DNA of 64,000 nt from Squalus acanthias. Lineage: Eukaryota. The stretch covers positions 151,406,001 through 151,470,000 of the forward strand of contig CM059431.1 of assembly GCA_030390025.1 (NCBI GenBank), written 5' to 3'. The notes under the pieces are model-generated. The model was not told where the DNA came from and did no database searches. It saw only the letters and a list, made by a program, of their open reading frames with translations. A program made the translations under genes and the position numbers. Below, in pieces: positions 3,349 through 58,641 of the stretch (within the stretch, counting starts at the first letter, position 1; every line of letters starts with the position of its first letter).

Positions 3349-3421
3349 ACCCGAATAGCTCAGTCGGTAGAGCATCAGACTTTTAATCTAAGGATCTAGG
3401 GATCTAGTCCTTGTTCGAGCG
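3349..3421 (+). pseudogene. tRNA-Lys(UUU) pseudogene
   Basis: ACCCGAATAGCTCAGTCGGTAGAGCATCAGACTTTTAATCTAAGG matches vertebrate tRNA-Lys TTT; T arm/B box degraded (GGGATCTAGTCC). Confidence 0.85.
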
Positions 3422-3659
3422 CAGCATAATCAATAGAACTAACAATTTGAAGCACCGACATTGATTATAACCTATCATAAAAATCTTTTTAAAATTGAAA
3501 AATATTCATGTATTTTATTGAGACATAAGGAAAGATCAGCGTGAATTGCTCGTGTTTTATGATTCTCTGGGAAAGTAAGATTTGAAATAAAGAAAGATAA
3601 GATCATGGCTGATCTCTATCCGAACTCCAACCTCCGCCTTGGCTCCATATCCTTTATAT

Positions 3660-9237: not shown

Positions 9238-9687
9238 TCACGCTTTCAATTTCACACAGCGACCTCCAATGGCTAACATGGAACATTACATCTTTCATAT
9301 TACGCATTTCACGCTCTATTAATCCCGCGTATACAAGCATTTCTCTCTTGTCCCCTCTAGTTCACTTGCCAATCACTATCAATCTGTGTCCTCTGGTTAC
9401 CGACGCTTCAGCCACAGGAAACAGTTTCGCCATTTCTACTCTATCAAAACCATTGGTGATTTTGAACACCTTAATCAAATCTCCTCTTTACCTTCTCTGC
9501 TCTAAGGAGAACAAACCCAGCTTCTAACAACACAGGTGTTAAATCTCCAGTTCGCTATCTCTGCTCAAAGAAGGCAGTCGTAGATTCTGTAGTCTCGCCA
9601 CTTAACTGAAGTCCCTCATCCCTGGTCTCATTATAGTATTGAGAGGTCGCACAACACCAGGTTACAGTCCAACAGTTTTATTTGAAA

Positions 9688-9730
9688 TCACAAGCTTTCG
9701 GAGCTATCGATTTGCTCCTTCCTCAGGTGA
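9688..9730 (-). ncRNA. Minimal type I hammerhead ribozyme, left arm
   Basis: Reverse complement of 14152-14194. Confidence 0.8.
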
Positions 9731-10062
9731 AGTAAATTAGATACAGAATCTCCAAAGCATATATAGGTGGAAAACAAAGCATGTGTACTTTACAATTGCA
9801 GACCAATAAATTAAATCATCCTGACTATCTGCCGAGGTGTGATAAAGTTAATTAAGTCAGCCAGGAAGGTACCACATCAAAGACATAGCAAGATACAACT
9901 GAGACAATGAGGTGTAGTCGCAGGGGTTCCAACGTGTCAAAAGCTGCCGTCTGTATGTAAAACGAAAAGCTTTAACATTTTTTTACTTTTTTACTGGGAA
10001 AATTTTTACTTTTTTACTGGGAATCACATCTGTGAACAAGCTAACGACGACTCGAGTCCGGA

Positions 10063-12488
10063 TCACGTCATGTATCGTGACATAAACCCAAGATCCCGAT
10101 TGAGACCGTCTTCATGAGTGCGGAACTTGGCTATCAGTTTCTGCTCGATGATTTTGCGTTGTCGTGTGTTTCTAAGATTGCCTTGGAGAACGCTTACCCG
10201 CAGATCCGAGGCTGAATGTCCTTGACTGCTGAAGTGTTCCCCGACTGGGAGGTAACAATCCTGCCTGGCGATTGTTGCGCGGTGCTCGTTCATACGTTGT
10301 CTCAGTGTCTGCATGGTCTCGCCGATGTACCATGCCGCGGTGCATTCTTTCCTGCAACGTATGAGGTAGACAACTTTGGCCGAGTCACATGAGTATGTAC
10401 CATGTACCTGGTGGGTAGTGTCCTCACGTGTGATGGTGGTATCTGTGTTGATGATCTGGCATGTCTTGCAGAGTTTGCCATGGCAGGGTTGTGTGGTGTC
10501 GTGGTCGCTGTTATCCTGAAAGCTGGGTAATTTGCTGCGAACGATGGTACTTCTGAGGTTAGGCGGCTGTTTGAAGGCAAGTAGTGGAGGCGTGGGGATG
10601 GCCTTAGCGAAGTGTTTGTCGTCATCGATGACATGTTCAAGGCTGCGAAGAACATGGCGTAGTTTCTCCGCTCCGGGGAAGTACTGGACGACGTAGGGTA
10701 CCCTGTTGGTTGTGTCCCGTGTTTGCCTTCTGAGGAGGTCTATGCGATTTTTCGCTGTGGCCCGTCGGAACTGTCGATCGATGAGTCGAGCGTCATATCC
10801 CGTTCTTACGAGGGCGTTTTTCAGCGTCCGTAGGTGTCCATCGCGTTCCTCCTCGTCTGAGCAGATCCTGTGTATTCGCAGGGCTTGTCCATAGGGGATG
10901 GCTTCTTTAACATGGTTAGGGTGGAAGCTGGAGAAGTGGAGCATCGTGAGGTTGTCCGTGGGCTTGCGGTAGAGTGAAGTGCTGAGGTGTCCGTCTTTGA
11001 TGGAGATTCGTGTGTCCAGGAATGAGACTGATTCTGAGGAGTAGTCCATGGTGAGTTTGATGGTGGGATGGAACATGTTTATGTTATCGTGTAGTCTTTT
11101 CAGTGATCCTTCGCCATGGGTCCAAAGGAAGAAAATGTCGTCGATGTATCTGGTATACAGCGTTGGCTGGAGGTCCTGTGCAGCGAAGAAGTCTTGCTCG
11201 AACTTGTGCATGAAGATGTTGGCGTATTGGGGTGCGAATTTGGTCCCCATGGCTGTTCCGTGTGTTTGGGTAAAAAAATGGTTTTCGAAGGTGAAGACAT
11301 TGTGGTCAAGGATGAAGCGGATGAGTTGTAGGATGGCGTCTGGAGATTGGCTGTTGTTGATGTTGAGTACTGAGGCTGTTGCAGCGATGCCGTCATCGTG
11401 GGGGATACTGGTGTAGAGTGCCGATACGTCCATCGTGGCAAGGAGTGTTCCTGGTTCAACTGGTCCGTGGGTGCTGAGTTTCTGTAAGAAGTCTGTAGTG
11501 TCGCGACAGAAGCTGGGGGTTCCCTGTACGATGGGTTTCAGAATGCCCTCGACGTATCCAGAGAGGTTCTCACACAGGGTTCCATTGCCTGATACGATAG
11601 GACGTCCGGGTGTGTTGGCTTTGTGTATCTTTGGGAGGCAGTAGAAGTCTCCCACGCGGGGATTACGTGGGATGAGAGCGCGTAGGATGTTTTGAAGGTC
11701 TGGATCGAAGGTCTTGATCAGTCTATTGAGTTGGCGGGTGTGTTCTTTGGTCGGATCTGCGGGTAGCTGTCTGTAGTGTTCCTGGTTGTCCAGTTGTCGG
11801 TATGCTTCTTTACAATAGTCCGTTCTGTTCTGTATGACGATGGCTCCTCCTTTGTCCGTTGGTTTGATGACAATGTTGCGGTTGGTCTTGAGAGCGTGGA
11901 TGGCGTTGCGTTGTGCTCGGGTGACATTCTGGACTGTCTTGTGAGTGCGGCTGATGAATCTGGCGTTGATGCATCTCCTGACAGCTTGAGCCTACATGTC
12001 AAGCTTGGGGCAGCGACCCTCCGGAGGGGTCCAGTTTGACTCTTTTTTCTTCGGTTGCTGCACTGCGAGTCCCTCTGTCTGCTGTTCTGGATCATTGATT
12101 GTCTCATTGGGTTTGTTGCTGACATCTTGGGATTTGTGGAAGTATTCCCGGAGCCTCATTCTCCTGATGAATTCCTCCGTGTCTGCCGCGAGGCCGATGG
12201 GGTCCATTTTGGTGGTTGGGCAGAACTTGAGCCCTAGGGCGAGAACTTCGATTTCGTCTGGTTGAAGCGTATGGTCGGACAAGTTGACGATGGACTTCCC
12301 TGTGGTTGCAGCCGTGGTACCGGGGGAGGCTTGGTTGCTGCTGGTGGTGATGCCGAGTTTCTCAAGCTTGCTGTTCTTGATGCGCATGTAGGCAGCGTAG
12401 TTCCGTTGCCTCGTCTGTTTGGTGGTGTCTCGTAACTGGTCTGCTGTGTCCTGAGCACAGGCTGAGAGCATGGACTCTATCTTGGTTG
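10063..12488 (-). pseudogene. Penelope RT + GIY-YIG ORF, 5'-truncated, one in-frame stop at 11992-11994
   Basis: ORFs 11992-12834 and 10063-11655 share a frame; motifs KPTDKGG, FYCLPKIHK, DVSALYTSIP, GTAMG, YIDD, Cys linker CHGKLCKTC (Neptune-type), VVY..YIGET. Confidence 0.9.
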
Positions 12489-13819
12489 ACGGCATCGCTG
12501 CAACAGCCTCAGTACTCAACATCAACAACAGCCAATCTCCAGACGCCATCCTACAACTCATCCGCTTCATCCTTGACCACAATGTCTTCACCTTCGACAA
12601 CCATTTTTTTACCCAAACACACGGAACAGCCATGGGGACCAAATTCGCACCCCAATACGCCAACATCTTCATGCACAAGTTCGAGCAAGACTTCTTCGCT
12701 GCACAGGACCTCCAGCCAACGCTGTATACCAGATACATCGACGACATTTTCTTCCTTTGGACCCATGGCGAAGGATCACTGAAAAGACTACACGATAACA
12801 TAAACATGTTCCATCCCACCATCAAACTCACCATGGACTACTCCTCAGAATCAGTCTCATTCCTGGACACACGAATCTCCATCAAAGACGGACACCTCAG
12901 CACTTCACTCTACCGCAAGCCCACGGACAACCTCACGATGCTCCACTTCTCCAGCTTCCACCCTAACCATGTTAAAGAAGCCATCCCCTATGGACAAGCC
13001 CTGCGAATACACAGGATCTGCTCAGACGAGGAGGAACGCGATGGACACCTACGGACGCTGAAAAACGCCCTCGTAAGAACGGGATATGACGCTCGACTCA
13101 TCGATCGACAGTTCCGACGGGCCACAGCGAAAAATCGCATAGACCTCCTCAGAAGGCAAACACGGGACACAACCAACAGGGTACCCTACGTCGTCCAGTA
13201 CTTCCCCGGAGCGGAGAAACTACGCCATGTTCTTCGCAGCCTTCAACATGTCATCGATGACGACAAACACCTCACTAAGGCCATCCCCACGCCTCCACTA
13301 CTTGCCTTCAAACAGCCGCCTAACCTCAGAAGTACCATCGTTCGCAGCAAATTACCCAGCTTTCAGGATAACAGCGACCACGACACCACACAACCCTGCC
13401 ATGGCAAACTCTGCAAGACATGCCAGATCATCAACACAGATACCACCATCACACGTGAGGACACTACCCACCAGGTACATGGTACATACTCATGTGACTC
13501 GGCCAACGTTGTCTACCTCATACGTTGCAGGAAAGAATGCACCGCGGCATGGTACATCGGCGAGACCATGCAGACACTGAGACAACGTATGAACGAGCAC
13601 CACGCAACAATCGCCAGGCAGGATTGTTACCTCCCAGTCGGGGAACACTTCAGCAGTCAAGGACATTCAGCCTCGGATCTGCGGGTAAGCGTTCTCCAAG
13701 GCAACCTTAGAAACACACGACAACGCAAAATCATCGAGCAGAAACTGATAGCCATGTTCCGCACTCATGAAGACGGTCTCAATCGGGATCTTGGGTTTAT
13801 GTCACGATACATGACGTGA
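12470..13819 (+). CDS. Penelope ORF C-terminal part (partial RT, GIY-YIG) in the right arm; first 6 codons come from the antisense of the left arm
   Basis: 449-aa open frame nearly identical to the left-arm protein from DGIAATAS onward; lacks N-terminal RT motifs. Confidence 0.7.
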   Translation: MDSILVDGIAATASVLNINNSQSPDAILQLIRFILDHNVFTFDNHFFTQTHGTAMGTKFAPQYANIFMHKFEQDFFAAQDLQPTLYTRYIDDIFFLWTHGEGSLKRLHDNINMFHPTIKLTMDYSSESVSFLDTRISIKDGHLSTSLYRKPTDNLTMLHFSSFHPNHVKEAIPYGQALRIHRICSDEEERDGHLRTLKNALVRTGYDARLIDRQFRRATAKNRIDLLRRQTRDTTNRVPYVVQYFPGAEKLRHVLRSLQHVIDDDKHLTKAIPTPPLLAFKQPPNLRSTIVRSKLPSFQDNSDHDTTQPCHGKLCKTCQIINTDTTITREDTTHQVHGTYSCDSANVVYLIRCRKECTAAWYIGETMQTLRQRMNEHHATIARQDCYLPVGEHFSSQGHSASDLRVSVLQGNLRNTRQRKIIEQKLIAMFRTHEDGLNRDLGFMSRYMT

Positions 13820-14151
13820 TCCGGACTCGAGTCGTCGTTAGCTTGTTCACAGATGTGATTCCCAGTAAAAAAGTAAAAATTTTCCCAGTAAAAAAGTAAA
13901 AAAATGTTAAAGCTTTTCGGTTTACATACAGACGGCAGCTTTTGACACGTTGGAACCCCTGCGACTACACCTCATTGTCTCAGTTGTATCTTGCTATGTC
14001 TTTGATGTGGTACCTTCCTGGCTGACTTAATTAACTTTATCACACCTCGGCAGATAGTCAGGATGATTTAATTTATTGGTCTGCAATTGTAAAGTACACA
14101 TGCTTTGTTTTCCACCTATATCTGCTTTGGAGATTCTGTATCTAATTTACT

Positions 14152-14194
14152 TCACCTGAGGAAGGAGCAAATCGATAGCTCCGAAAGCTTGTGA
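14152..14194 (+). ncRNA. Minimal type I hammerhead ribozyme, right arm
   Basis: UCAC-CUGAGGA-A-GGAGC(AAAUCGAUA)GCUCC-GAAAGCUU-GUGA: intact core, stem I UCAC/GUGA, palindromic AAGCUU stem III; followed by AATAAA. Confidence 0.85.
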
Positions 14195-15357
14195 TTTCAA
14201 ATAAAACTGTTGGACTATAACCTGGTGTTGTGCGACCTCTCAATTTTGTCCACCCCAGTCCAACACCGGCATCTCCGCATCATGCTCATTATAGTAACCA
14301 TGATGTGAATATGCCGGTGTTGGACTGGTGTGGACAAAAGTGAGAAGTCGCACAACACCAGGTTATAGCCTCAGCAGCCAGGAGAAGGGGAAGGAGAATG
14401 AGCAGCAGCAGCAGAGTGGTGGTCTCTGTGACCAGGAAGAGGAGAAGGAGACCAGACAGCAGACCACTACCAACACATCCACAACAACAACTGAGGTGCC
14501 TGGAGAGAGAGGACAGGAGAGGAGAAAGAAAAGCAAAGAAGGCCAAGGCCATCAACAGCAGAGGAGAGGCCTTTCCATCACTGCCTCCTCAATTGGCCTC
14601 CATTTTAGGAGAGGGAGAGAGGGGAGAAAACATCCCAACAACCATCAACTGTTTGGAAGGAGGGAGGAAGGAAAGAATATCAGCTACAGGTGGGTGTGAT
14701 TCTGGTGCACTCTCCCAGAGACTTTGTTTTGTAGGTGGGGGGAGGAAAGAAGAAAAGAAGAGGGCCAAAACATCCAAGGGGTGTGTGTGTGTGTGTGGCT
14801 TTTGTAAAAACTAGGCCGCACACACCATATTAAACACCCCTTTCCCATTGCCTGGCCTGGGACAGCTGGAGCTGCCTAGGTGAAGTTACCCAATTTAAGT
14901 TCATCTAATTGGGCATCGTTAAGACCTGGTGCAGGACTGAGCCTGGGCATCTCCAGCTTTCCCAGGTGAAGACATCTTCTCCCCCCACCAGAAGACCACC
15001 ACCAAAGACTTTTATTTACATCGGAGAGTGCACCCCCTGCCAACACCCACCCACCAACCAGCCTGAGTGGCGACCCTGCCCTTGCGGCTTCCCTCCTTCC
15101 CACCCCCTCTCTCTCTCTCTTTGTCTCTTGTCTCTCTCTGCCTCTCTCTCTAAGAGGCACCTCAATTTACTTTTAATTAAGTACCCATTGAGCAGAGGGG
15201 AGAAGGCCCCTCTCCCAATTCAATCAAATAAAGGGAGAGGTGTGCCTTCAATTTAAGAGCTCCCTCTGCTCAGGGGAAAACAAATACAAAACCGAGGCCA
15301 TTAACAACTTCAGGCCTGTGACTTGGGGTGAGTGTAGCCCTTAAAGACCCGTCCATT

Positions 15358-17517
15358 ATGGCGAGCACATCTTCGTCGGTGGCGGGGGCAGCGAGGACGT
15401 ATGCGAGTGTGGCAGCCGCGGCCACGGCCGCAGCCAGGAGTCCTCCTGTTACCCCGTCACCTTTTGCCCTCCTTACGAGGAGGAATGGGGTGAAGAGCTA
15501 CACTCACCCCAATATGACAATAGAGGCGTGCGTGAAAGCAATGGCTGGGGTTATCGGCCCTTCAGCCATCGTCGCCGCCTCTAAAATGTACGGCAAGGCT
15601 ATGTTCTTCCTGGGGTCAGAGCGGGCGGTGTCCCTGGCCAGCGAGAAGGGGCTCACCGTGGGCGGGACCTTCCTGCCGGTGGACCCCCTTGAGGCCACCG
15701 CGCAAAGGATTGTTGTTTCCAACGTCCCGCCCTTTGTTCCGGGTGAGCTCCTCCTCCCCCACCTATGTCAACTGGGGGAGGTGAGGTCGGGGATCACACC
15801 CATCCCGCTCGGCTTCCGGGAATCCAGCCTTCGGCACGTCTTCTCCTTCCGGCGCCAGCTTTTCGTCCGGCTGGCGCGGGAGGAGGACGCGGACGGCGCG
15901 TTCACGGTGCTCCACGGGGGGACCGCCCACCGCGTCTTCTGGACCTCGGACGGCATGCGGTGCTACGCCTGTAAGGAGGTGGGGCACGTCCGCAAAAACT
16001 GCCCCGCCTCCAAGGCTGCCACGACACCTAGCGCGGCCAGGGCTGGCGCCGCCGTCCCCCTCCCCCTGATACTGTCCACGCGTCGAGGGCGACGGATGCG
16101 TGGTCGAAATCGGAGGCCAACACCATCACGGCCTCCGGCGGGGGGGAGGGAGAGCGTCCGAGGGTGAAGAAGGCGCTTAGAAAGACTAAACACGTAAGGG
16201 CGGATCCCCTCGTGGAGGAAACATCCGATTTGCCCGAACTCACGCCTGCGTACATCGCGGAGTTGACCGGGACGCGTGAGACTGGGGGGGTCCTCGTGCC
16301 CGGGCCCGTGACCGTGACCGCAACTGCCAAGGCAGCTAAATCAAGACCTGCTGCCGGGCTCGGGCCCGAGGGGCCCAAGAAACCCAGTCATCGGAAGGGG
16401 GCAGAGAGGGAGGCCCCAGCAGACATGGAGGCCTCCCCCTCTCCGGGCCCCAACATGTTAAAAAGGAAGCTCCACCCCCAGGAGGAGGACTGCGAGGAGG
16501 AAGGTCCCTCCGCAGAAGGGGGGGAGTCGCCCGCCGTGGGTGCTGCGCCCCACTCCACCAACGTCATCGTCGTGCGCGAGCGGCAGGGGTCGCCTGTCCC
16601 TCGGGAGGGTTAGACAGCCGAGTCTGTCCGACCTGTGCCTCCCGGGGATGGGGAAGTGACCCTGCCCGTGGGGGGGGGGGCGCGGAACAACCCGCGGATA
16701 TTAATAATAAAAATCCTGAACCGTTGCTACTCGCCGGGTCGGGCGTCCTGGGGACTGGGGCGGGCGAGGCCAAAGAGGCTGAAGCCGAGCCCGCCTTTTA
16801 CAACCCAGATATCTCCCAGGGACTTCTCGACCTGGTGGAGGAGTACAACAATCCCCAGCCCGCTGGGTCGGAGGTTTGTGGCGGGGAGACAGAAAGCCCC
16901 CTGACTCCGTCTCTGATGTTGGCGCCAGACGTACAGGAGGACTTTGAGATTATTTTCTCCCTGGTTTCTCCGGTCGCTCCGGCGCCCGAGGCGGGGGGGG
17001 GGGCCCCGAACCGCCGCCGCCTCCCGGCCCGGCGCCCCTGAAGGAGCCCAGGGTGGACTCCTCTGCCACCGATCCTCGGGGTGGGATCGTAACGGAGGCG
17101 GGGCCGGCCGGTGCGGCCGAGCCGTTCGCTGCACCCCGTGCGACGGACGGGTTGGCCGCCGGTGATGACCTCCCGGAGGAGGACGGGGACTCGGTGTTGG
17201 GCACCGAGGACGATTTGGAGTCCATCGGCAGCGAGGCGATGGACGCCCTCGTGCCCTTCACTGACTCTCCCCTCATCCCCGTAGGGGAACTCCGGGATTT
17301 TATGGCCACGAGCCAGGGTCGTCACAAGAAGATCCGGCTGGCCCTCGACAAGTGGTCGGAGCTGGCGTTGCTCGTCGTGTCCATCCGCGCCGCCGTTAAA
17401 ATCATGGGCGCGGACAAGGACGTTGGCCGGCTCGAGCTGCGTCGGCTCAAGAGTTTCCACACTGGGCTGCTGAGGGAGTGGCGGTCTTCAGTGACCGCGC
17501 TCCCTCCCCTCCGTTAG
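15358..17517 (+). pseudogene. Tx1 ORF1 (CCHC zinc-knuckle nucleic-acid-binding protein), frameshifted
   Basis: MASTSSS..LTRRNGVK..AASKMYGKAMFFL..IVVSNVPPFV..SFRRQLFVRL..CYACKEVGHVRKNC; continues through pieces 16164-16613, 16724-17041 and 17053-17517. Confidence 0.85.
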
Positions 17518-17542
17518 GTAATGGTTGCACTATGCTTCTGAG

Positions 17543-20500
17543 ATGAAGATAACCATAGCCAGCCTCAACATCAACGGCAGCAGGGAGGCGCGCCGTAGAT
17601 TCAATAACTTCTCGGTCCTTCGGGACGGGAAATATGCGGTGTGCTTCCTGCAAGAAACCCACACCGTTCCGGGAGACGAGGCCACGTGGCTCCTGGAGTG
17701 GCAAGGAGGGGTCAGCATGAGTCACCTCTCCAACAATTCCTGCGGGGTGGCTGTCTTGCTGGTCCCGCATTTTCAGCCGGAGATCTTGAGGGTCAAGGAG
17801 CACGTGCCGGGCCGCTGGCTCCAGGTCACTGTTTGCCTGGGAGACGTGCCGCTCCATTTAGTGAACGTGTACGCCCCCCGGACCGGTGCGCAGCAACTGC
17901 GCTTCTTCGGAGAAGTGTCCGCTCATCTGGGCTCCATCGACGTGGGCAAGTGCGTCATCCTCGGGGGGGATTTCAATTGTACCCTCGAGGCGCGGGACCG
18001 GTCGGGTCCCCCGCGAAGCCCGGCGGCGATGGAGAAGTTGCGGGACCTGGTCGGGTCCTTCGACTTGGTGGACGTCTGGCGAAATCTCCATCCCGACTCC
18101 AGCGCCTTCACGAGTGTGAGGTCTGGAGGAGGAAGGTCCAGAATCGACCGCCTTTACATTTCCCGGGCGTACGTCTCCTGCGTTCCGGCGGCTTCCATGC
18201 GGCTGGTGCCGTGCACGGACCACCACCTGGTGTGGGCGGAGCTCGCTCCGCTGCACGCACGGTGGGGAGTCCGCGTACTGGCATTTTAACAACCTGCTGC
18301 TGGAGGACGCGCGGTTCCGGGATTCGTTTCGCCGGTTCTGGGCCGACTGGAGAAGGAAGCGGGGAGGCTTCCCCTCCTTGAGGCTTTGGTGGGACGTGGG
18401 CAAGGCTCACGTCCGTGTCTTCTGTCAGGAGTACGCGAAGGGGTCGACCAAGAGGCGGGAGGCCCGGGTCGGGCGATTGGAGAAAGAAGTGCTCGACCTG
18501 GAGTCCCGTCTCGGTCAGGTCGTCGAGGACCCGGCCCTGCGGAAGGTGTACGAAGAGAAGAAGGGCGCGCTGAAGGGCCTGCAGCTGGTCGGGTCCCGAG
18601 GCGCGTAAGTGAGGTCGCGGATCCAGTTCCTGCGGGACCTGGACCGCGGCTCCCCCTTCTTCTACTCGCTGGAAAAATGACGGGGGGTCCTTAAGCAGCT
18701 CTTGGGGCTGCTGGCCGACGACGGATCTCTGGTCTCGGATCCGGAGGGCATCAGCGCGGAGGCCCGGGCCTATTACGGGGCTCTGTTCTCTTCGGATCCG
18801 TCCAGCGAGGATGCGCGCAGAGTTTTGTGGGAGGACCTGCCGAAGGTCGGCCCGGAGGGCGCCGGGAATTTGGAAGCTCCGCTAAGCCTGGCGGAGCTGA
18901 CCGGTGCCCTGCGCCAGCTCTCGAGGGGCAAGTCCCCGGGCCTGGATGGGCTGACCGTGGAGTTCCACAGGGCGTTCTGGGACGTCTTGGGGGACGACTA
19001 CGCGCGGGTCCTGGGGGAAAGTCTGGCGACCGGGCAGATGCCCCTCTCTTGGCGCAGGGCGGTCATCGTCCTGCTGCCCAAGAAGGGCAATCTCCGCCTA
19101 CTTAAGAACTGGCGCCCGGTCTCCCTCCTCAGCACGGACTACAAAATTTTCGCCAGGGCTATGTCTGCTCGCCTTGGCACCGTGCTGGCCCACATGATCC
19201 ACCCCGACCAGTCCTACACGGTCCCGGGCCGGACAATCCACGACAACATCCATCTGGTCCGGGACCTGGTCCACCATTCCCAGAGGGCTGGTCTGTCGGT
19301 CGCCTTCCTTTCCCTAGATCAGGAGAAGGCGTTCGACAGGGTGGATCACGAGTATCTTTTCGGGACTCTGCGCGCATTCGGGTTCGGGACGCATTTCGTC
19401 ACCCGGATCCGACTTCTGTACGCCGCCGCGGAGTGTCTGATTAAAGTTAACGGGTCTTTGACTGCGCCCCTTTGCTTCGGGAGGGGGGTGCGTCAGGGAT
19501 GCCCCATGTCCGGTCAGTTATACGCCGTTTGCGTGGAGCCTTTCCTGCGCCTCTTGCGGAAGAGGTTGATGGGACTGGCTCTGCAAGGGCCGGGTGTGGA
19601 GGTGGTCCTCTCGGCTTATGCCGATGACGTGCTCCTCGCGGTCACGGATCCCGTCGACTTGCGGAGGATGCGAGAATGCCAGCAGATTTACTCGGACGCA
19701 TCCTCCGCCAAGATCAACTGGCAGAAATGTTCTGGACTCCTGATGGGGCCATGGCAGGTGGACTCCCTGCCGGAGGAGTTCGGGCCTTCCGCCTGGAGCA
19801 CCACGCACCTCTTCTACCTGGGAGTCTACCTCAGCCCGGCCGAGGATGCCTGGCCGGCGAACTGGCAAGAGCTGGAGGCCAAAGTCAACTCTCGCCTAGG
19901 GCGCTGGACAGGACTGCTCCGAGTGATGTCCTACAGGGGTCGAGCGCTGGTCATAAACCAGCTGGTGGCCGCCATGTTGTGGTACCGGTTGGTCACTTTG
20001 ATCCCTCCCCCTGCGTTTGTCGCCAAGATGCAGAAGAAGCTCGTCGCCTTCTTCTGGGACAAAAGGAAGCACTGGGTCTCTGCCGTGGTTTTGAGTCTCC
20101 CGCTTAGGGAGGGCGGTCAGGCGTTGGTGTGCCTTCGCACCCAGGCGGCAACTTTCCGTCTTCAGACGCTGCAGAGATACCTGTACGTGGAGAATCCTCC
20201 TAGGTGGCGTGCGCTGGCGACGTATTTCTTCCGCCAGCTGCACGGCCTCAATTACGACACGCAGCTCCTGTTTGTGAGAGTGGGTGGCACGCGTGCCAGC
20301 CTGTGGGAGCTGCCTGTCTTCTACCAGGAACTGCTATGGGTTTGGAACAGCGTCGCCTCCGAGCGCAGTTCTCCCCCGTCAGGAGCGGCGGCCGTCCTTC
20401 GGGAGCCGCTGTTCAGGAATCCGCACCTCCACGACCGCGGGTTCGGCTGGCTGGCGGAGGGCAGGGCTGTGCCCGGTAAGGTGACCAGAGTCGGGGACCT

Positions 20501-21443
20501 GCTCGATGGCGGAGGAGCAGGCTGGATGGCGCCGGAGGAGTTGGCGAGGCGCATGTCCTGGGTCAACGTCCGGCTCGCGGTCAAAGCCATCGAGTCGCTA
20601 AAAGTGGCACTGGGCCCTGTCTCCACTAGGTGTGTCGAGGAGGCTCAAGCACGTGGGGCGATCCCGTCCGAACTGACCCCCGTTCGGACGGAATTCCTTA
20701 TCGGCGCCCGGCCCCGAATCCTCCCTCGGGAGCCGCCGCCTCACCACTTGAGCCTTCTCGGAGAAATGCCCTCCGTGCCCTTTCAATCCGCACGGAGGCG
20801 TTTCCTGTATGGGCTGCTCCTGCACACTCTCCACTTTGCCATCTTCGTCTGCCATCCGGACACGCCTTGGCGTACCATCCTGCCGTCCGGCGGAGGCGAA
20901 GGTCCCCATTGGAAGGCTCTCTACGCGGGAGTCTTCCCTTGTTCTATTGGGGACTTGGCCTGGAGGGTGTTGCACAGAGCAGTCCCGTGCAATAGGGTTT
21001 TAAATAGGTTTACAGACTCCCAGGCTGCTTGCCATTTCTGCGGCCTGGAGGAGTCCGTCTATCACATTTATATTGAATGTGAGAGGTTGCAGCCCCTCTT
21101 TCATTATTTGAAGGGGCTGCTCCTCAATTTCTGGTTGCACTTCAGCCCCACGCTCCTGATCTACGGTCACCCGGTGCGGAGGGGAGCGGGTAGGTCGGAG
21201 GACCTCCTCGTAGGACTGCTCCTGGGCCTGGCCAAGAAAGCCATTAATTGGTCCAGGCAGCGGGCGGTCGAGGGGGTCGTTCGGCCCGATTGCCTGCCTC
21301 TCTTCCGCGGCCATGTTCGCGCCCGGGTGGCCCTGGAGATGGAGCACGCGGTGTCCGCCGGCACGCTTGAGTTTTTCCGCGACCGGTGGGCGCCACGGGG
21401 ACTGGAGTGCATCGTCACCCCGGACTTCCAAATTTTAATTTGA
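17543..21443 (+). pseudogene. Tx1 ORF2 (APE endonuclease, RT, C-terminal zinc finger), disrupted
   Basis: MKITIASLNING, FLQETH, GGDFNC, SRIDR, TDHH; frameshift near 18265, stops at 18606-18608 and 18678-18680; KSPGLDG, NWRPVSLL, LDQEKAFD, QGCPMS, YADD, CHFCGLEESVYHIYIEC. Confidence 0.92.
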
Positions 21444-21879
21444 TTTATTAAGTTTCATTTAAAGTTTTAATTGATTTACAGTTAATTTGGGTTCTGTCCA
21501 ACCAAAAAGAGGAACACCAGGTTATAGTACAACAGCTGTACTTGAAATCACAAGCTTTTGGAGCGCTGCTCCTTCGTCACTTCAGCACTCCGAAAATTTG
21601 TGATTTCAGATAAAGCTGCTGGAATATAACCTGGTGTTGTGCCACTTCCCTCATTATAGTAAGTATTTCCTTCGGGGATGCGAATCTCCATCGCATGTCT
21701 TCTCTCTTCGCTGCAATCTCTGCCCCACTAGTCCGCATAATTATGTTCCTCCATAGTAAATCTCCAAGTAAATTCACAGCCAACCCCTTGGATCTTATGT
21801 TAAAATCTGTTCAAGGGTAGTGACTTTTCATCAATGTATTCAATGTATTGATAGTCAAATAAGAAAATCATATTGAAAT

Positions 21880-30518: not shown

Positions 30519-33371
30519 CTGCTTGTAATCAATGGAAATAGCAATTTACAGCACCGACGTCAGATTATAACCTATTACAAAAATCGTTTTAAATTGAAAA
30601 ATATTCATGTATTTTATTGAGAGAGCAGAAACGAATTGCTCGTTTTTTATGGTCCTCTAAGAAAGTAAGATTTGAAAGAATGAAAGATACGGTCATGGCT
30701 GATCTGTATCCGAACTCCAACCCCCAGCCTTGGCTCCATATCCTTTTATAACCTTGTCTAGCAAAACTCAATCGATCTCCGTTTTAAAATGATTATATGA
30801 ACTGTTTTCTGTGGGAGAGAATTCCACACTTCCACGAACCTTTGCATGAAGAAGTGTTTCCTAAGTTCTCTCCAGAATGGCCTAGCTTTGTCTATCTGGT
30901 GCTGACACTTGCCACTACTCCGATGAGCAGCAGTCCTCAGACCGAGAGACACAATGGAAATCATAGAAAAATTTAAAAGTGTAAGGAGGAGTTGCATTTA
31001 TACAGCGCCTATCACTCCCACAGGACGTCGCAAAACGTTTTACAGCCAATTACATACATTCTCAAAGACACCGGGAAGAAGTCCCCTACTCTTCTCATTA
31101 GATGAGTAACTTTATTGCGCCAGACTTGGCTCAGTTTTTAGGGGACTCACATCTGAAGTCGCGAATTATTCCTGGCTTCAAGTCTCACTCCAGGGATTTA
31201 AGCACCTCAATCTAGGCTGACAATGCAGTGCAGTACCAAGAGAGCGCTGCACTGAGGCAATTCCGTCTTTTGGAAGAGACGTTAAACCACGTCTCACTCT
31301 CAGGTGGACATAACCAATCTCACAGTCACACTTGGAGAGAAGTTTAGAGGAGTTCTGCCAAGTGTCTTGGCCCAATATTTACCCTACTAAAGAAGAGATC
31401 GTCTGATCATTATCGCATTGTTGTTTGTGGGATCTTGCTGTTCGAAAATTGGTTGCTACCTTTCCTACATTCCCACAGTTCAAAAGTACTTCATTGGCTG
31501 TAAGGCGCTTTGGGACGTCTGTGTTGTAAAAGGCGCTATATTAATGCAAATTCTTTCTTCGAATAGTGCCATGGGATCTTCCACATCCAACTGAGAGGGC
31601 AGCATTGAATGGCAATAAAAACAATGAGGGATGTAGAAGGGGGCAGTCGTTTCGCTATCGCCGATTTCATACCATCGCAATAAGTCAATATTACCGCTTT
31701 ATCACTGCATTTATTGTGGAACCAATCCCCGGGCTGGGAAATGCACCGGTGAGAATGCTGGGCTCACTGACGAGACTCGCACGGCAATAGTGTCTTGGTG
31801 ACACGCTGGAGAGTTCCTGGCACCCGCGCTCTGTTAACTAAGATAACACACAATGACGGGGAAGGAGAGAACAAAACAGGCCTTTTTCAATATATTCACA
31901 GAATGCTTCATTTATTGAAATGCAAACTTAATCATCTTACAGTTTATCGGGACACAGAACGTCAGGGGACAATTGCCCAGTTGCTCAATTAAGATCTACT
32001 AAAAGGAGTCGCTTCTGGTTAGTTTTTTAAAGCTTTACAGCATCAGAAGTTTGCAGATGATACAAAAATAGGCCGTATTGTTGATAATGAAGAATAAAGC
32101 TGCAGACTGAAGTAATATATCAGCAGACTGGTCTGGTGGGAAGAACAGCGGTAAATGGAATTCAATCCGGTGAATGGTGAGGTAATGCATTTGGGGAGGG
32201 CTAACAAGCCAAGCGAATATACAATGAATGGCCGGCACCTGAGAAGTGCAGCGGATCAGAGGGACCTTGGAGTGCATGTCCACAGATCCCTGAAGGTAGC
32301 AGGACAGGTAGACAAGATGTTGAAGAAGGCATACAGGATACTTGCCTTTATTTGGCGATGCATATAATATAAGAGCAGGGAGGTTATGCTAGAATTGCAT
32401 AAAACACTAGTTAGGCCACAACTTGAATACTGCGTGCAGTTCTGATCAGCACACTACAGGAAGAATGTGATTGATTAGAGAGGGTGCAGAGGAGATTTAC
32501 GAGGATGTGGCTGGAGCTGGGGAAATTTAGATATGAGGTAAGATTGGATAGGCTGGGGTTGCTTTCATTGGAACAGATGAGTCTGAGGGGAGACCTAATT
32601 GAGGTGTATAAAATTATGAGGGTCCTAGAGAGAGTGGGTAGGAAGGACCTATTTCGGTTAGCAGAGTGATAAATAACCAGGGGGCATAGACGTAAAGTAA
32701 CTGGTAGTTGGTTTAGAGAGAAGTTGAGGGGAAAGTATTTCACCCAGATGGTGATGGGTGGTGTGAGAACTCATTTCCTTAAAGAATGGTAGAAGCAGAA
32801 ATTCTCATCACATTTTAAAAGTACTTAGATATGAAATTGATGTGCCATAAACTAAAGCGCTGCGGGGCAAGTGCTGTGGTGTGGGATTAGGTTTGATAAC
32901 TCTTTGTCGGCCGACATGGACAAGATGGGACAAATGGCCTCCTTTTGTGCTGTGAGTTTCTATGATTCCATGACTAGCATAGATGCATTTAAAGGAAGCT
33001 GGATACACATTTGAGGGAGATCGGAATAGAAGGATGTACTGATTGGGTTGGATGAAGAGGAGATTTGGAAGAGGCTTGTGTGGAGCATAAACATCAGCAC
33101 AGACAATTAGGGCGGAATGGCTTGTGTCTGTGTTGTAGACTCGCTGTAACACGAGGATATGAAGTAAAGTTTGGGAGCATTTTCCTCTATATGGAAGCCA
33201 CGAATGCTCACCGAAAAAACCTGAGCGTTTGCGGAACACTTTTCAAACTGCTAAGTCCGGAAACCAGAAAGGGTTATTTCAAATATTGCCTGATCCGAAA
33301 CTCCGAAAGGTACACGCAAGGAGTTGGGGGATAAAAACAGTTGAGAGCGGAAAGGGATCTTTATCAAACAT

Positions 33372-33511
33372 AAATGAGAAGTCGCACAACACCAGGTTAT
33401 AGTCCAAAAGATTTATTTAAAATTACAAGCTTTCGGAGCTGTCGCCCCTTCCTCACGTAGAGTTACTGTGAGAGTCCACCCCAGTCCAACGCCGGCATCT
33501 CCACATCATGA
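33372..33511. mobile_element. 140-bp Penelope-terminus insertion (inverted arm plus tail), TSD TTTAT(C/A)AAACAT
   Basis: TSD at 33360-33371 and 33512-33523; empty paralog TTTATGAAACATGACAGG at ~27909. Confidence 0.85.
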
Positions 33512-36407: not shown

Positions 36408-37537
36408 AAAAATGAGAAGTCGCACAACACCAAGTTATAGTCCAATATATTTATTTAAAATTACAAGCTTTCGGAGCTATCGATCGCCCCTTCTTCAGGT
36501 AAAGTTACAATGAGTGAATCTACAAAAGTTCACAGAATATAAACACAGAAAATGCGAGATACAATCTTTCCTTACATCAAAGACACACCAAGAGCACAGC
36601 CAAGACAATGAGATGTGTCCCAGGGCTAAGGCTATCCCAAGGCTCCACTATTCGCCTTCAAGAAGCCGCCTAACCTCAAAAGTACCATCGTTCGCGACAA
36701 ATTACCCAGCTGTCAGGAGAACAGCGACCACGACACCACACAACCCTGCCACGGCAACCTCTGCAAGACATGCCAGATCATGAAAACAGATACCGTCATC
36801 ACACGTGAGGACACTACCCACCAGATACATGGAACTTACTCATGTGACTCGGCCAACGTTGCTAACCTGATACGTTGCAGGAAAGGAAGCCCCAGAGCAT
36901 TGTACATCGGCGAGACCATGTGGACACTGAGACAACGTATGAACGGACACCGCTCAACAATCGCCAGGCAGGATGGTTGCCTCCCAGTCGGGGAACACTT
37001 CAGCAGTCAAGGGCATTCAGCCTCGGATCTGCGGGTTAGCGTTCTCCAAGGCGGCCTTCGAGACATACGACAACGCAAAATCATCGAGCAGAAACTGATA
37101 GCCAAGTTCCGCACTCATGAGGATGGCCTCAATAGGGATACCGGGTTCATGTCACGCTACAGAATGTGACTTGAAATCGTTGTCTGTCTTTCCAGTTTTT
37201 AAAAAACAACCACAAAAAAAAAGGACGGAGAGAGAGGAAGGGATATGGAGAGGATATGCAGACAGCAGGATTTGACAGGTTGGATCCTCTGGGACACAAC
37301 TCATTGTTTTGGATGTGCTCTTGATGTGTCTTTGATGTAAGGAAAGATAGTATCTCTGCAATTACTGTGTTTATATTCTGTGAACTTTTGTAGATTCACT
37401 CATTGTAACTTTACCTGAAGAAGGGGCGATCGATAGCTCCGAAACCTTGTAATTTTAAATAAATCTGTTGGACTATAAACTGGTGTTGTGCGACTTCTCA
37501 TTTTTGTCCACCCCAGTCCAACGCCGGCCTCTTCGCA
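36408..37537 (+). mobile_element. 5'-truncated Neptune-like Penelope copy with inverted terminal arm (36408-36624 vs ~37288-37505), TSD CCTTGTAAT
   Basis: GIY-YIG ORF 36780-37169 homologous to the 12470-13819 C-terminus; TSD at 36397-36405 and 37538-37546. Confidence 0.9.
36461..36502 (-). ncRNA. Minimal hammerhead ribozyme (sister copy 37411-37452 on +, stem III mutated)
   Basis: rc UUAC-CUGAAGA-A-GGGGC(GAUCGAUA)GCUCC-GAAAGCUU-GUAA. Confidence 0.8.
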
Positions 37538-46108: not shown

Positions 46109-46316
46109 CCATGATGTGGAGATGCCGGTTTTGGTCTGGGGTGGACAAATGTGAGATGTCGCACAACACCAGGTTATAGTCCAACGGCATTATTTGAAAT
46201 CACAAGCTTTCGGAGCGCTGCTCCTTCGTCACTTAACCTGACGAAGGAGCAGCGCTCCGAAAACTTGTGATTTCAGATAAAGCTGTTGGAATATAACCTG
46301 GTGTTGTGCTACTTCT
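46109..46316. mobile_element. Penelope-terminus palindromic mini-element with two opposed hammerhead motifs
   Basis: TCACAAGCTTTCGGAGCGCTGCTCCTTCGTCA / CTGACGAAGGAGCAGCGCTCCGAAAACTTGTGA; diverged TSD CTCATTATAGTAA (46096) vs CTGATTAGAGTAA (46317). Confidence 0.85.
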
Positions 46317-46756
46317 CTGATTAGAGTAAGTCTTTGCTTCGGGGATGCGAATGTCCATCGCAGATCTTCTCTCTTCGCTGCAATCAATGCCCCACCAGTC
46401 CACTTGATTATTTTCCTCCATAGTAAATCTCCAAGCCAAATTCAGAGCCAAACACTTGGATCTAATGTTAAAATCTGTTCAAGGGCTGTGACTGTTCCTC
46501 AATTTATTCAATATATTGATAGTCAAATAAGAAAATCATATTGAAATTGGGAAGTGACGATGCGTTGCAGAAGCTAATGTAATGTTGGCCATTCTCTCAA
46601 GGGACTGGAACACAAAGGGGTGGCAGTTACGTGACATTTATACAAAGCTCTGGTTAGACCCCATTTAGAGCACGGCGATCAGTTCGGCGCAGGGCACCTC
46701 AGGGAGCACACATTGGCATTGGAGCGGGTGCAGCGCAGATTCACCAGAATGATAAT

Positions 46757-51859: not shown

Positions 51860-53438
51860 TAGAAACAGAGAACATAGGAGCAGTAGTAGTCCATTTGGCC
51901 CCTCGAGCCTGCTCCGCCATTCGATGAGATCATGGCTGATCATCCAAACTCAGTACACTGTACCTGCTTTTCCCCCATATCCCTTGATATCTTTAGCTCT
52001 AAGAAATATTTCTAACTCATTCTTGAATATATTTAATGACTTGTCCTCACCTACCTTCTGTGGTCAAGAATTCCACAGGTTAACCACTCTCTGGGTGAAT
52101 AAATTCTTCCTCATTTCTGTCCTAAACGGCTTACCCCTTATCCTTAGATTATGACCCCTGGTTCTGGACTCTCCGACGATCGGGAACATTCTTCCTGCAT
52201 CTAGTTTGTGCAGACCTGTCAGAATTGTATATGATTCGATGAGATCCCCACTCATTCTTCTATAATCCAGCGAGTATAAGCCCAATCGACCCAATCTCTC
52301 CTCATATGTCATTCCTGCAATCCCAGGTATCAGCCTTGTGAATCTTCGCTGAACTCCTTCCATGGCAAGAACATCCTTCCTCAGATAATGCTTACAAAAC
52401 TGCACACAGTACTCAAGGTGTGGTCTCACCAAGGCCCTGTACAACTGCAGCAGGACATCCCTGAACCTATACTCAAACCCTTTCGCTATGAAGGCCAACA
52501 TACCATTTGCCTTCTTCTCCACCTGCTGCACCTGCATGCTGACCTTCAGCGACTGGTGCACAAGGACACCCAGGTCTCGTTGCACTTCCCCTTCTCCCAA
52601 TCTATTGCCATTCAGATAAAAGTCTGCCTTTCTATTTTTGACATCAAAGTGGATAACCTCACATTTATACACGTTCTGTTGCATCTGCCACGCTTCTGCC
52701 CACTTATCCAACCTGTCCAAATCATCCTGGAGTTTATGGGTATCCGCCCCGTAGCACACACTCCGAATCAGCTTTGTGTCATCTGCAAACTTGGAGATAT
52801 TACATTTAGTTCCCTTATCTAGATCATTAATGTATATTGTGAATAGCTGGGGGCCAAGGACCGATCCCTGTGGTACCCCACTAGTCACTCTTGCCACTCG
52901 GAAAAAAGACTCATTACTTTCTACTCTCTGCTTTCTGTCCGCCAACCAGTTCTCTATCCAAGTCAATACCTTTCCTCCAATCCCATGTGCCTTAAATTTA
53001 CACGCAAATTTCTGATGTGGGACTTTATCGAAAGCCTTTTCAAAGTCCTAATACACCACATTTACTGGTTCTCCCTAATCTATTTTTCCAGTTACATCCT
53101 CAAAAAATTCCAGTAGATTAGTCAAGCACGATATAACTTTTGTAAATCAATGTTGACTTTGTCCGATCCTGTCACTGTGTTTTAAGTGCTCAGCTATTAC
53201 ATCCTTTATAATGGACTCGAGCATTTTGCCCACTACCGATGTCAGGCTTACCGGTCTGTAATTCCCCGCTTTCTCTCTACCACCCTTTTTGAAAAGTGGG
53301 GTAACATAATCCATGGGTACAGTTCCAGATTCCATCGAATGTTGGAAGATGATCAGCAATGCATCTACTGTTTCTAGGACCACTTCCTTAAGTACCCTAG
53401 GCTGTAGATTATCAGGACCTGGGGTTTTATCGGCCTTC
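51860..53438 (-). mobile_element. Younger 5'-truncated CR1 inserted into an older CR1
   Basis: 300-aa RT frame 52064-52966 (GVPQGSVLGP, FADD), 3' tail at 51860; absent from paralogs at ~26760 and ~32205. Confidence 0.9.
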
Positions 53439-54974
53439 AAGGCAAGCGAATACACAATAAATGGCAGGAAAATGAGAAGTGCAGAGGATCAGAGGGACCT
53501 TAACGTGCATGTCCACAGATCCCTGAAGGTAGCATTCCAGGTAAACAAGATGTTGAAGAAGGCATACAGGATACTTGTTTTTATTTGCCGATGCATATAA
53601 TATAAGAGCAGGGAGGTTATGCTAGAATTGCATAAAACACTAGTTAGGCAACAACTTGAATACTGCGTGCAGTTGTGGTCACCACATTACAGGAAGGATG
53701 CGATTGCACTAGAGAGGGTGCAGAGGAGGTTTACGAGGATGTTGCCTGGGCTGGGGAAATTTAGATATGAGGTAAGAATGGATAGGATGGGGTTGTTTTC
53801 ATTGGACCAGATGAGGCTGAGGGGAGACATATTTTAGGTATATAAATTTATGAGGTCCTAGAGAGAGTGGGTAGGAAGAACCTATTTCGCTTAGCAGAAG
53901 GATCAATAACCAAGGGGCATAGACGTAAAGTAACTGTTAGTTGGTTCGAGGGAAGTTAAGGGAAAAGTATTTCACCCATATGGTGATGGGGGGTCTGAGA
54001 ACTCATTTCCTGAAATGATCTTAGAAGCAAAAACACGAATCACATTTAAAAAGTACTTGGATATGAAATTGACAAGCCATAAACTACAGCGCTGCGGACC
54101 AAGTGCTGGGGTGTGATATTAGGGTTGATAACTCTTTGTCGGCTACCATGGACAAGATGGGAGAAATGGCCTCCTTTTGTGCTGTGAGTTTCTATGATTT
54201 AATAACTAGCATAGATGCATTCAAAGGAAGCTAGATACACACTTGAGGGAGATAGGAATAGAAGGATATGCTGATTGGGTTGGATGAAGAGGGGATTTAA
54301 AGAGGCTCGTGTGGAGCATAAACTTCAGCACAGAGAATTAGGGCAGAATGGCTTGTGTCTGTGTTGAAGACTCGCTGTAACACGAGGATATGAAGTAAAG
54401 TTTGGGAGCATGATCCTCTGTATGAAAGCCACGAATGCTCACTCAAAATAACTGAGTGGTTGCGGAACACTTTTCAAACTGCTAAGTCCGGAAATCAGTA
54501 AGGTATATTTCAAATATTGCCTTATCCGAAATTTCGAAAGTTACAGGCGAGGAATTGGGGAAAAGAAACATTTGAGAGCGGAAAGGAAACTTTAGAATAC
54601 ATGACAGGAAGCAATCAGAAAGAAGAGTAATACAGACTAACAAAGCCCCATACTCAGAACGTCTAGTTCGAATCAATCAATCGAAATTCAATAGATGCAC
54701 TCAGATTGTAGCCAACAATAGAAGCAATCATTGATCTTTCCCCTGAGATCTGTTCTGATTGGGCGGCCTTTCAGGCAACTGATTATCTGTCGCCACATGC
54801 TGAAAATGATTCATATTTATATTGCCATTTATATCTCTAGGAAACCTCACTTGGGACAGTCCGAGTAGACAATGATTTACATTAGTCACCCTCACTGGAC
54901 CAAACAGATTCAGACACCATATGGTGTTGTTTTGATATTAATAATTCGGTTAAACACTTTATATGCACTGCCTG

Positions 54975-55805: not shown

Positions 55806-56619
55806 GGTAAAAACATTAATCGGGACAAAATTTACAGTCACTTGGATAGGTTTGGATTCATTAAGGAAGCCAGCACCGATTTCTTAAAGACAAATGCTGT
55901 TTACCCAATTTGGTCGAGTATTTTGATGAGGTAACAGAGAGGGTTGATAAGGGTAATATGATTGATATAGTATCATGGATTTCCAAAAGGCGTTCGACAA
56001 AGTGCCACATAAAAGGATCGCCAGCAAAGTTGAAGGCCATGGAATAAAAGGGACAGTGGCAACATGGATACGAAATTGGCTAATTGATAAGAAACAGAGA
56101 ATAGTGGTGAAGGGTCTTTATTCCGTCTGGAGGAACGTATAAAGTGGAGTTCACCAGATGTCGGTTCTAGGACCACTGCTTTTTTTGATATATATCAATG
56201 ACTTTCACGTTGGTGTAAAGGGAACAATTTCAAAATTTGCAGATGACACAAAACTTGTAAGTAACGTGAACAGTGAGGACGAGAGTGATAGACTTAAGGA
56301 AGATATAAACAGGATGGTGAAATGGGCGGACAAGTGACAGATGAATTTTAACGCAGATAAATGTGAAGGGATACATTTTGGTAGAACGTATGAGCAGAGA
56401 ACATATAAATTAAATGGTAAAATAATAAAGTGGGTGCACGAGCAGAGACATCTGGGGTTTATGTGTACAAATCGTTGAAGGTGGCAGGGCAGTTTGAGAA
56501 AACAGTTAAAAAATGCATAGGGTTCCTGGGCTTCATAAATAGAGTACAAAAGTCTGTAAGTTATGATGAACCTGTATAAAACACTGGTTCGGCCCCAACT
56601 GGAGTAAGGTGTCCAATTT

Positions 56620-57760
56620 TGGAGTCCATTATTAAGGACACAGTAACAGGACATTTGGATAATCATAATTTAATAGGACAAAGTCAGCATGGTTTTACGA
56701 AGGGGAAGTCATGTTTGACAAATTTGCTGGAGTTCTTTGAGGAAGTAACATATAGAGTGGATAAAGGGGAACCAGTGGACGTAGTGTATTTAGACTTCCA
56801 AAAGGCATTTGACAAGGTGCCACACAAAAGATTATTGCTTAAGCTAAAAAATCACGGGATTGGGGGTAATATTCTGGCATGGATAGAGGATTGGCTATCT
56901 AACAGAAAGCAAAGAGTTGGGATAAATGGTTCATTCTCAGACTGGCAATCAGTAACTAGTGGTGTTCCACAGGGGTCAGTGCTGGGTCCCCAACTCTTCA
57001 CAATCTATATTAACGATTTGGAGGAAGGGACCAAGTGTAACATATCAAAATTTGCAGATGATACAAAGATGGGAGGGAAAGTAGTGAGTGAGGAGGATAT
57101 AAAAAACCTGCAAGGGGACATAGACAGGCTAAGTAAGTGGGCAGAGATTTGGCAGATGGAATACAACACTGGAAAGTGTGAGGTGATGCACTTTGGCAGG
57201 AAAAATCCTAGAGCAATTTATTATCTTAATGGCAAGAAACTGGAGAGTACTGAAGTGCAAAGGGATCTGGGGGTCCTGGTGCACGAAACTCAAAAGGTTA
57301 GTATGCAGGTGCAGCAAGTGATTAAGAAGGCAAATGGAATGTTGGCTTTCATTGCTAGGGGGATAGAATATAAAAATAGGGAGGTATTGCTTCAGTTGTA
57401 CAAGGTATTGGTGAGACCGCACCTGGAATACTGCATACAGTTTTGGTGTCCTTACTTAAGGAAAGACATCCTTGCTCTCGAGGCAGTGCAAAAAAGGTTC
57501 ACTCGGTTAATCCCGGGGATGAGGGGGTGGTCATATGAGGAGAGGTTGGGTAGATTGGGACTCTACTCATTGGAGTTCAGAAGAATGAGAGGCGATCTTA
57601 TTGAAACATATAAGATTGTGAAGGGGTTGGATCGGGTGGATGCGGGGAGGATGTTCCCGATGACGGGTGAGACGAGAACTAGGGGACATAGTCTTAGAAT
57701 AAGGGGCTGCTCTTTCAAAACTGAGATGAGGAGGAACTACTTCACTCAGAGGGTGGTAGG
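56620..57760 (+). mobile_element. Young CR1 RT fragment (uninterrupted ~380 codons) nested in an older CR1, truncated at both ends
   Basis: SQHGFTKGKSCLTNL, YLDFQKAFDKV, GVPQGSVLGP, FADD, ends at FTQRVV with no 3' UTR; absent at paralogs ~2478 and ~29595. Confidence 0.9.
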
Positions 57761-58641
57761 TCCATGATTTTGGGCAGCAAACTTTAGGAAGGATAAGAAG
57801 GCCTTAGAGAGAGAGTGCAGAAAAGATGTAGGAGAATTATTCCAGGATGAGGGACTTCAGTTACATTGATAGACTGGAGAAGCTGGGGTTTTTATCCTCG
57901 GAGCAGCGAAGATTGAGAGGAGATTTGATCGATGTGGTCAAAATCATGAGGGGCCTGGAAGGAGTAGATAGAGAGAAACTGTTCCCTTTGGCAGAGGGGT
58001 CGAGAACCAGAGGACACAGATTTATGGTGATTGGCAAAAGAACCAAAGGCCACGTAAGAAAACACTTTTCTACACTGCGATGGATTAAGATCTGGAATGC
58101 ACTGCCTGAATGAGTGGTAGAGGCAGAGTCAATCTTATCTTTCAAACGGGAGTTGGATATATATCTGAAGGAAAATGAAATCAGGGCTACGGGAAAAGTC
58201 GTGGGAGTGGGTCTAGCTGAGAGTCGGCATGGGTTCGATGGGCCGAATGGCCTTGTTCCGTGCTTGTAACCATTCTATGATTTCATTCTATGACTCTAAC
58301 TAGTCCTGCGATCTTCAAAAATTTGTCTACATAACACCCCGGCGGTGAGATTAAGGAGAAGGGAGTCAGATTGGGGACAAGGAATGAGATCGAGGAGTCA
58401 GGGATCAGATTGAAGAGAAGAGTTCAGATTCAGGAGAAAGTGCGATTTCAGTTCTGAGGAGACTCGGGGCAATTTGATGCCTGTTAGTGTGTTTGAGATA
58501 GATTGTGCTGAGAAGAGGAGTCGAACTGAAGCCATGAAGTGACGGTGCGTGTGTTCAGAGGGCAGCTGTGGCCAGGAAGTGAAGGGAATTGTAATTCCCT
58601 ACCACAGCCATTCAGTGCCGCTGTTTCATTAGCACCTTCGA

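Follow-up and report, generated by a model that had tools for sequence, protein, structure and literature searches.

A 64,000-bp stretch of the Squalus acanthias genome (GCA_030390025.1, contig CM059431.1, positions 151,406,001 to 151,470,000), hereafter referred to as the window, contains a full-length long interspersed nuclear element (LINE) with the features of the Tx1 clade, 7,144 bp in length (14369-21512), inserted into the end of a Penelope-like element (PLE). The family to which this LINE belongs is very probably sequence-specific for that PLE terminal site, a judgement based on contigs from public sequencing runs and on the site specificity of its nearest characterised relative, Tx1L. 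The sequence-only reading of the window had suggested that the family uses PLE termini as its target, and the suggestion is supported by the neighbouring position of Tx1L and by independent copies at the same site, found in small numbers in two of four runs.

The LINE is flanked by a 15-bp target-site duplication, AACACCAGGTTATAG, which is exact over its whole length and allows no extension at either side. When up to two mismatches are allowed, the window contains 11 occurrences of this sequence, where 0.08 would be expected by chance, and the PLE terminal motif holds all of these occurrences except the one at 4240, that is, 10 of 11. Counting the duplicated pair once, the window includes nine target sites, one filled and eight empty (9653, 14215, 21624, 33388, 36426, 37473, 46165 and 46291). 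The window is composed of segmental duplicates, one of which carries an uninterrupted paralog of the PLE relic that received the LINE; once the LINE is removed, the filled site and the empty paralog are identical at 207 of 229 aligned bases (~90%). The duplication and the empty paralog together therefore identify a real insertion into a pre-existing PLE end. The LINE, which has neither a further match in the window, itself included, nor terminal repeats, lies antisense to the PLE arm carrying it. In this single case the insertion occurred in the arm matching the target at 15 of 15 positions, not in the 14/15 arm located 110 bp off. The order of events appears to have been the formation of the relic, the segmental duplication (~10% divergence), the insertion of the LINE (~2%) and finally that of a young PLE at the edge of the relic. 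Much of this had been anticipated from the sequence alone: the location of the duplication within the Penelope 3'-terminal motif, an uninterrupted site near 46160-46185, where the empty target of the paralog is found, and six empty sites, all of them present, with those at 21624 and 46291 having been missed. The hammerhead placed at 20-35 nt was also correctly positioned, as its stem starts 20 nt past the 3' duplication and 35 nt past the end of the LINE.

Other copies of the family were sought in public data. Sampled words of the LINE were contained at 36-53% in 20 of the 24 listed public runs (12 studies), and contigs from four of these 20 were placed on 14250-21700: X1 and X3 (two studies of organism A, either of which could come from the source of the window), X8 (organism C) and X15 (organism F). 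In each of the four, coverage extends to all 30 bins of the interval. The statements on individual contigs refer to the rows listed: for joints these were 15 of 275, for between-letter rows 12 of 86, for loose ends 24 of 2,395 and for pieces 32 of 48,427. One contig of X8 (record 32; 1,147 nt) spans 20395-21535, extending 23 nt into the target, with 16 differences, one gap and a depth of 15.5, compared with 13.9-17.9 for the long contigs of the second open reading frame (ORF2). Two of the X1 joints, 14367->21271 and 14364->20488, connect the upstream target to the interior of the LINE, and can be read as independent insertions with unlike 5' truncations, offset by 1-4 nt from a shared junction. 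The independent copies at the same target thus comprise the window copy, the contig of organism C and the two joints of organism A, which are small numbers. Among the 24 of 2,395 loose ends listed none falls at 21512, whereas the list does include rows at other positions made up of 34-67 contigs, and the share of contigs continuing into unlike sequence is 0, 0, 0.03 and 0.06 in X1, X3, X8 and X15, respectively. In X15, no contig crosses the 3' junction among the records listed. Summed contig depth in X1 and X3, which is not a copy number, climbs toward the 3' end of the LINE, as 5' truncation predicts.

A further X1 contig contains the initial 333 bp of the LINE's 5' untranslated region (UTR), up to 14701, then four other letters and then the target at 21513; it may represent a short non-autonomous derivative at the same site. 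The X1 joints 14366->21542 and 14368->21620 were rejected as insertions and are taken to represent sites that are either empty or deleted. In metagenome contigs, a search for relatives of the LINE by protein returned 20 pattern matches, none of which was confirmed, while the last 18 bases of the LINE matched 14 times, in every case by chance and without other similarity to the LINE, and these were not counted as off-target copies.

A mechanism can be proposed from target-primed reverse transcription, which is known for LINEs with an apurinic/apyrimidinic endonuclease (APE), and from the orientation of the LINE. The LINE endonuclease would nick the sense strand of the PLE within GGTGTT^GTGCG, and the freed 3' end would prime extension by the reverse transcriptase (RT) on the LINE RNA; a second nick on the opposite strand, 15 bp off, would then yield the duplication. 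The LINE RNA, which may pair with the primer, probably continues into the target, a read-through suggested by the absence of a poly(A) tail or signal, and a shortened hairpin loop of the endonuclease may contribute to the changed target. Being present in nearly every truncated PLE copy, the target would serve as a landing pad that is both abundant and, for the most part, harmless. A variant of this scheme, which is considered unlikely, accepts the targeting and attributes it mainly to RNA-DNA pairing instead of to the LINE endonuclease; read-through RNA that includes the target would anneal to PLE ends already nicked, perhaps through the PLE endonuclease. The missing poly(A) tail and signal would suit this variant, as would the in vitro nicking, by a lizard PLE protein, of the terminal repeat of its own element (PMC11167929). 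However, the endonuclease motifs of the LINE are intact, and the Tx1L endonuclease by itself nicks almost only its target (PMC1950540). Moreover, PLE cleavage favours AT-rich DNA (PMC11167929), and the PLE duplications in the window are AT-rich, unlike the LINE site.

It is improbable that the family inserts widely, by chance or with a loose preference, and that the window copy simply met an abundant repeat, as PLE ends make up 984 of 56,841 other bases of the window. A single event would fall on the exact base and strand with a probability of 7.9e-5, within 4 nt with one of 7.1e-4 and anywhere in a PLE end with one of 1.7%. Several points nonetheless speak against site specificity. It was judged from contigs of four runs; the rows listed are few among the contig rows, and on-target joints are more visible than random flanks. 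About 1,000 random copies would place ~0.7 of them within 4 nt of the target by chance, and therefore the two truncated joints alone are not decisive. The flank of the X8 contig, at 23 letters, is under the 31-letter bridge rule and could belong to an orthologous old insertion, and only one of the nine target sites in the window is filled. On the other side, a loose preference would have to accommodate the same base register in the organism C contig, the position of the two truncated copies within 1-4 nt, the lack of a loose end at 21512 among the rows listed, a run-on share near zero and a nearest characterised relative, Tx1L, which is site-specific (PMC1950540).

The common junction could also derive from the amplification of one old Tx1-in-PLE insertion, either by segmental duplication or by carriage within PLEs, which is very unlikely. 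The composition of the window from segmental duplicates fits this possibility, and the X8 flank is too short to assign the contig to a locus, but the duplicate of the LINE locus is empty and copies with unlike 5' truncation points meet the same target; furthermore, the relic and its paralog have diverged by ~10%, whereas contigs of the LINE family differ by ~1.4-2.5% in ORF2. Least credible is the notion that the site is targeted for its hammerhead, which would trim read-through LINE RNA to a defined 3' end: the start of the motif 35 nt past the end of a LINE devoid of poly(A) would be convenient, but the LINE runs antisense to the arm in which it sits, so that its RNA would bear the reverse complement, the core boxes of arm 1 are both mutated, the sense hammerhead of arm 2 has lost its core, and single minimal hammerheads show no detectable cleavage in vitro (PMC4209133).

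Table 1. Coordinates of the LINE, its target and the associated PLE sequences in the window.
Feature	Positions	Strand	Basis or remark
15-bp target-site duplication AACACCAGGTTATAG, 5' copy	14354-14368	+	exact match
15-bp target-site duplication AACACCAGGTTATAG, 3' copy	21513-21527	+	exact match
Tx1 5' UTR, ~1 kb, CpG-poor, with CT microsatellite (15107-15151)	14369-15357	+	covered by family contigs in four runs
ORF1 with CCHC zinc knuckle, frameshifted	15358-17517	+	zf-CCHC 1.1e-4, above curated cut-off
ORF2: APE, RT (~19077-19826), zf-RVT (~20904-21086)	17543-21443	+	Pfam
APE endonuclease domain of ORF2, open, catalytic motifs present	17543-18232	+	motif and structure comparison
Endonuclease beta-hairpin loop, 8 residues versus 11 in Tx1L	18113-18136	+	structure and sequence alignment
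3' UTR, 69 bp, without poly(A) tail and without AATAAA/ATTAAA	21444-21512	+	sequence inspection
PLE relic arm 1, outer end with optional 'tail'	14298-14353	-	tail as in PMC11167929
Inner part of PLE relic arm 1; minimal hammerhead degenerate, with mutations in the two core boxes	21528-21582	-	
Arm 2 of the PLE relic, inverted; a 15-bp deletion has removed the hammerhead core	21583-21649	+	
Young PLE, 5'-truncated, partly inverted, RT and GIY-YIG-like C-terminus	9639-14284	.	inserted at the edge of the relic
Uninterrupted paralog of the PLE relic in a segmental duplicate; empty target 46165-46179	46109-46317	.	alignment

The PLE copy carrying the LINE is an old relic of 200 bp, consisting of two PLE ends in inverted orientation, the second of which holds the empty 14/15 target at 21624-21638. 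What had been described as a conserved 3' hairpin is thus not a conserved PLE structure; it corresponds to two short inverted PLE ends, an arrangement known from PMC4209133. Nothing links the hairpin or the hammerhead to targeting; the hammerhead, which lies in antisense orientation relative to the LINE and has mutations in its two core boxes, probably has no part in it.

The features of the target are best preserved in the adjacent young PLE, whose arms are 99.4% identical and which is bounded by a 12-bp target-site duplication (9627-9638 and 14285-14296). Its protein shares 91% identity with a Heptranchias protein and 84% with a Scyliorhinus protein, values that point to a shark as host, and displays an RVT_1 match together with the motifs VVYLIRC, YIGET and RMNEH. 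Several homologues carry PF01541 (GIY-YIG); a Pfam scan of the window PLE protein gave no GIY-YIG match. The hammerhead (14152-14193) has intact boxes CUGAGGA and GAAA, a palindromic helix III and helices I and II, although its folding z-score is only -1.1 and an Rfam scan of the window found no hammerhead at the gathering threshold, two tRNA matches being the only ones. The hammerhead is followed by the target and then by two alternative 3' ends ~41 nt apart. The element is thus an endonuclease-positive (EN+) PLE, combining a PLE-type RT and C-terminal GIY-YIG-like motifs with a terminal repeat that includes a minimal hammerhead. Since the target is situated close to the shorter PLE end, at ~11-25 nt, even tiny truncated PLE copies carry it. 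In the metazoan PLEs of PMC4209133 and PMC11167929, as in the window, the RT is accompanied by GIY-YIG-like motifs, the hammerhead combines a palindromic helix III with the boxes CUGAnGA and GAAA, and there are two 3' ends, inverted short copies and AT-rich duplications; the portions of these two papers that were available make no mention of a LINE aimed at the PLE terminal repeat.

A 29-codon open frame ending in ATG (14198-14284) spans the target up to the longer PLE end. This frame could form the beginning of the PLE ORF, like that of the lizard PLE; comparison with full-length PLE proteins gave no convincing match. The duplication CTCATTATAGTA, found at 9627-9638, 14285-14297 and 21650-21662, is common to the young PLE and the older relic, so that two PLE insertions of unlike age share one AT-rich site. 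Two further short PLE insertions (33368-33510 and 36408-37537) show AT-rich imperfect duplications and empty targets. Beyond the PLEs, the window holds an open frame for a rhodopsin-family G protein-coupled receptor (62799-63749; 7tm_1, 1.2e-27) in a duplicated segment, two tRNA-Lys(TTT)-like sequences (3349-3422 and 58642-58715), also in duplicated segments, which are either tRNA genes or heads of short interspersed nuclear elements (SINEs), and fragments of the RT of a further LINE that is distant from Tx1 (56580-57767 and 52766-53440).

The LINE itself presents the organisation of a Tx1 element, with an upstream ORF1 bearing a CCHC knuckle, an ORF2 in which an N-terminal APE (Exo_endo_phos, 9.5e-12) precedes the RT (RVT_1, 1e-37), an RT grouping with Tx1L and a target-site duplication. 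ORF1 is interrupted by extra bases at 16670 and 16993, as determined by comparison with contigs, and the reading frames imply a third break near 16050-16150. ORF2 has a frameshift at 18263 and stops at 18606 and 18678. The three located frameshifts do not occur in the long contigs of X8 and X15, from which ORF2 of the window copy differs by 1.4-2.5%, and the two stops are missing from nearly all contig depth in the four runs; these lesions are therefore private to the window copy. The endonuclease had been expected to need repair, which proved not to be the case, as its domain is open despite the frameshifts and stops elsewhere in the ORFs. A stem between the 3' UTR of the LINE and the target is not significant (folding z -0.8). 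The 5' UTR has a CpG observed/expected ratio of 0.11, compared with 0.87 in both ORFs, which are GC- and CpG-rich. The mammalian L1 promoter is a CpG island, from which the CpG-poor 5' UTR of the LINE differs.

Tx1L of Xenopus laevis (P14381) and turtle proteins are the closest full-length named relatives. ORF2 is 50% identical to Tx1L over 100% of the query, rising to 63% in the RT core, with 46% in the endonuclease, and 51% identical to the turtle proteins. The RT tree, as had been proposed in assigning the element to Tx1, places it with Tx1L and the turtle rows in a 17-row clade (support 100/100), outside which falls the sole alligator protein of the tree (P0030). The tree comprises 41 rows drawn from 96 sequences covering the RT core, is midpoint-rooted without an L1 outgroup, and has the closer partial matches P0005 and P0120 outside its rows. 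The element is not Tx1L itself, since its flank is a PLE end instead of Tx1D and its endonuclease loop has 8 residues instead of 11.

This loop, a beta-hairpin, has been implicated in target selection (PMC1950540). The structures in PDB matched by the LINE endonuclease are L1 endonucleases, and the gap in the loop falls within the grafted Tx1L loop of structure 2v0r. A length of 11 residues was observed in 61 of 64 scorable loops among 120 ORF2 matches and in 69 of 72 among 105 further endonuclease matches. The long contigs of X8 and X15 have no indel at the loop, and the short loop is therefore a trait of the family. A quick endonuclease tree of 32 rows places the LINE in an 8-row clade (approximate likelihood-ratio support, SH-aLRT, 99), with Rhincodon (whale shark), Amblyraja (skate) and Heterodontus (horn shark) as named members, in which all seven scorable loops have 7-8 residues; one unrelated long-branch row also has a 7-residue loop. 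A tie between the short loop and the change of target is a lead only. Going further, it is conceivable, though rather doubtful, that a shark-and-skate branch of Tx1L shortened its loop from 11 to 7-8 residues and thereby moved from DNA transposons to the ends of retroelements (PLEs here and possibly, in another family, a CR1 promoter).

Fixed insertion into other mobile elements is a known habit of the clade. Tx1L inserts into the apparent DNA transposon Tx1D (PMC1950540, PMC1919474) and its endonuclease recognises ~10 bp (PMC1919474). Like the LINE, it has two ORFs, an APE with an RT and a fixed site in another mobile element, but its target is a DNA transposon and not a PLE terminal repeat, and the bases 3' of the nick are AGTT (PMC1950540), as opposed to GTGC at the presumed nick of the LINE. 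In crocodilians, Tx1-Mar prefers Mariner-N4_AMi and Tx1-9_AMi prefers Harbinger, Tx1-8_Crp and Tx1-4_AMi prefer retrotransposons of the long terminal repeat (LTR) class, and microsatellites are also used (PMC4494074). These families resemble the LINE in their preference for set positions within abundant transposons, which are mostly dead and include retrotransposons, and the duplication of SINEU-3 (16 bp; PMC4494074) is similar in length to the 15 bp seen here, while the targets themselves differ. The idea of a retrotransposon targeting a retrotransposon thus very probably holds for the LINE, but as a kind of behaviour it was already known from Tx1-8_Crp and Tx1-4_AMi (PMC4494074). The word Penelope is not present in the main text of PMC4494074, nor do the available parts of PMC4640811, PMC8869645, PMC8455134 and PMC6719617 mention a PLE target for Tx1. 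A Tx1 element with a PLE target was not found in a search of the full-text literature, outside which lie Repbase, Dfam and subscription papers. The Tx1 strategy of targeting transposons, and retrotransposons too, is therefore established, whereas a PLE target was not found in print.

If the specificity is confirmed, PLEs join the list of targets of Tx1 LINEs, and the safe-haven strategy of the clade would be aimed, in sharks, at a retroelement which is still active. Loop grafts have left open what determines the specificity of APE endonucleases (PMC1950540), and a relative of Tx1L with another target and a shorter loop offers a direct loop-swap test of it. Should retargeting through the loop be true, the LINE would be a true hyperparasite, cutting PLE templates beside the sites where their reverse transcription starts, and its branch would constitute a natural series from which the retargeting of APE endonucleases could be learned.

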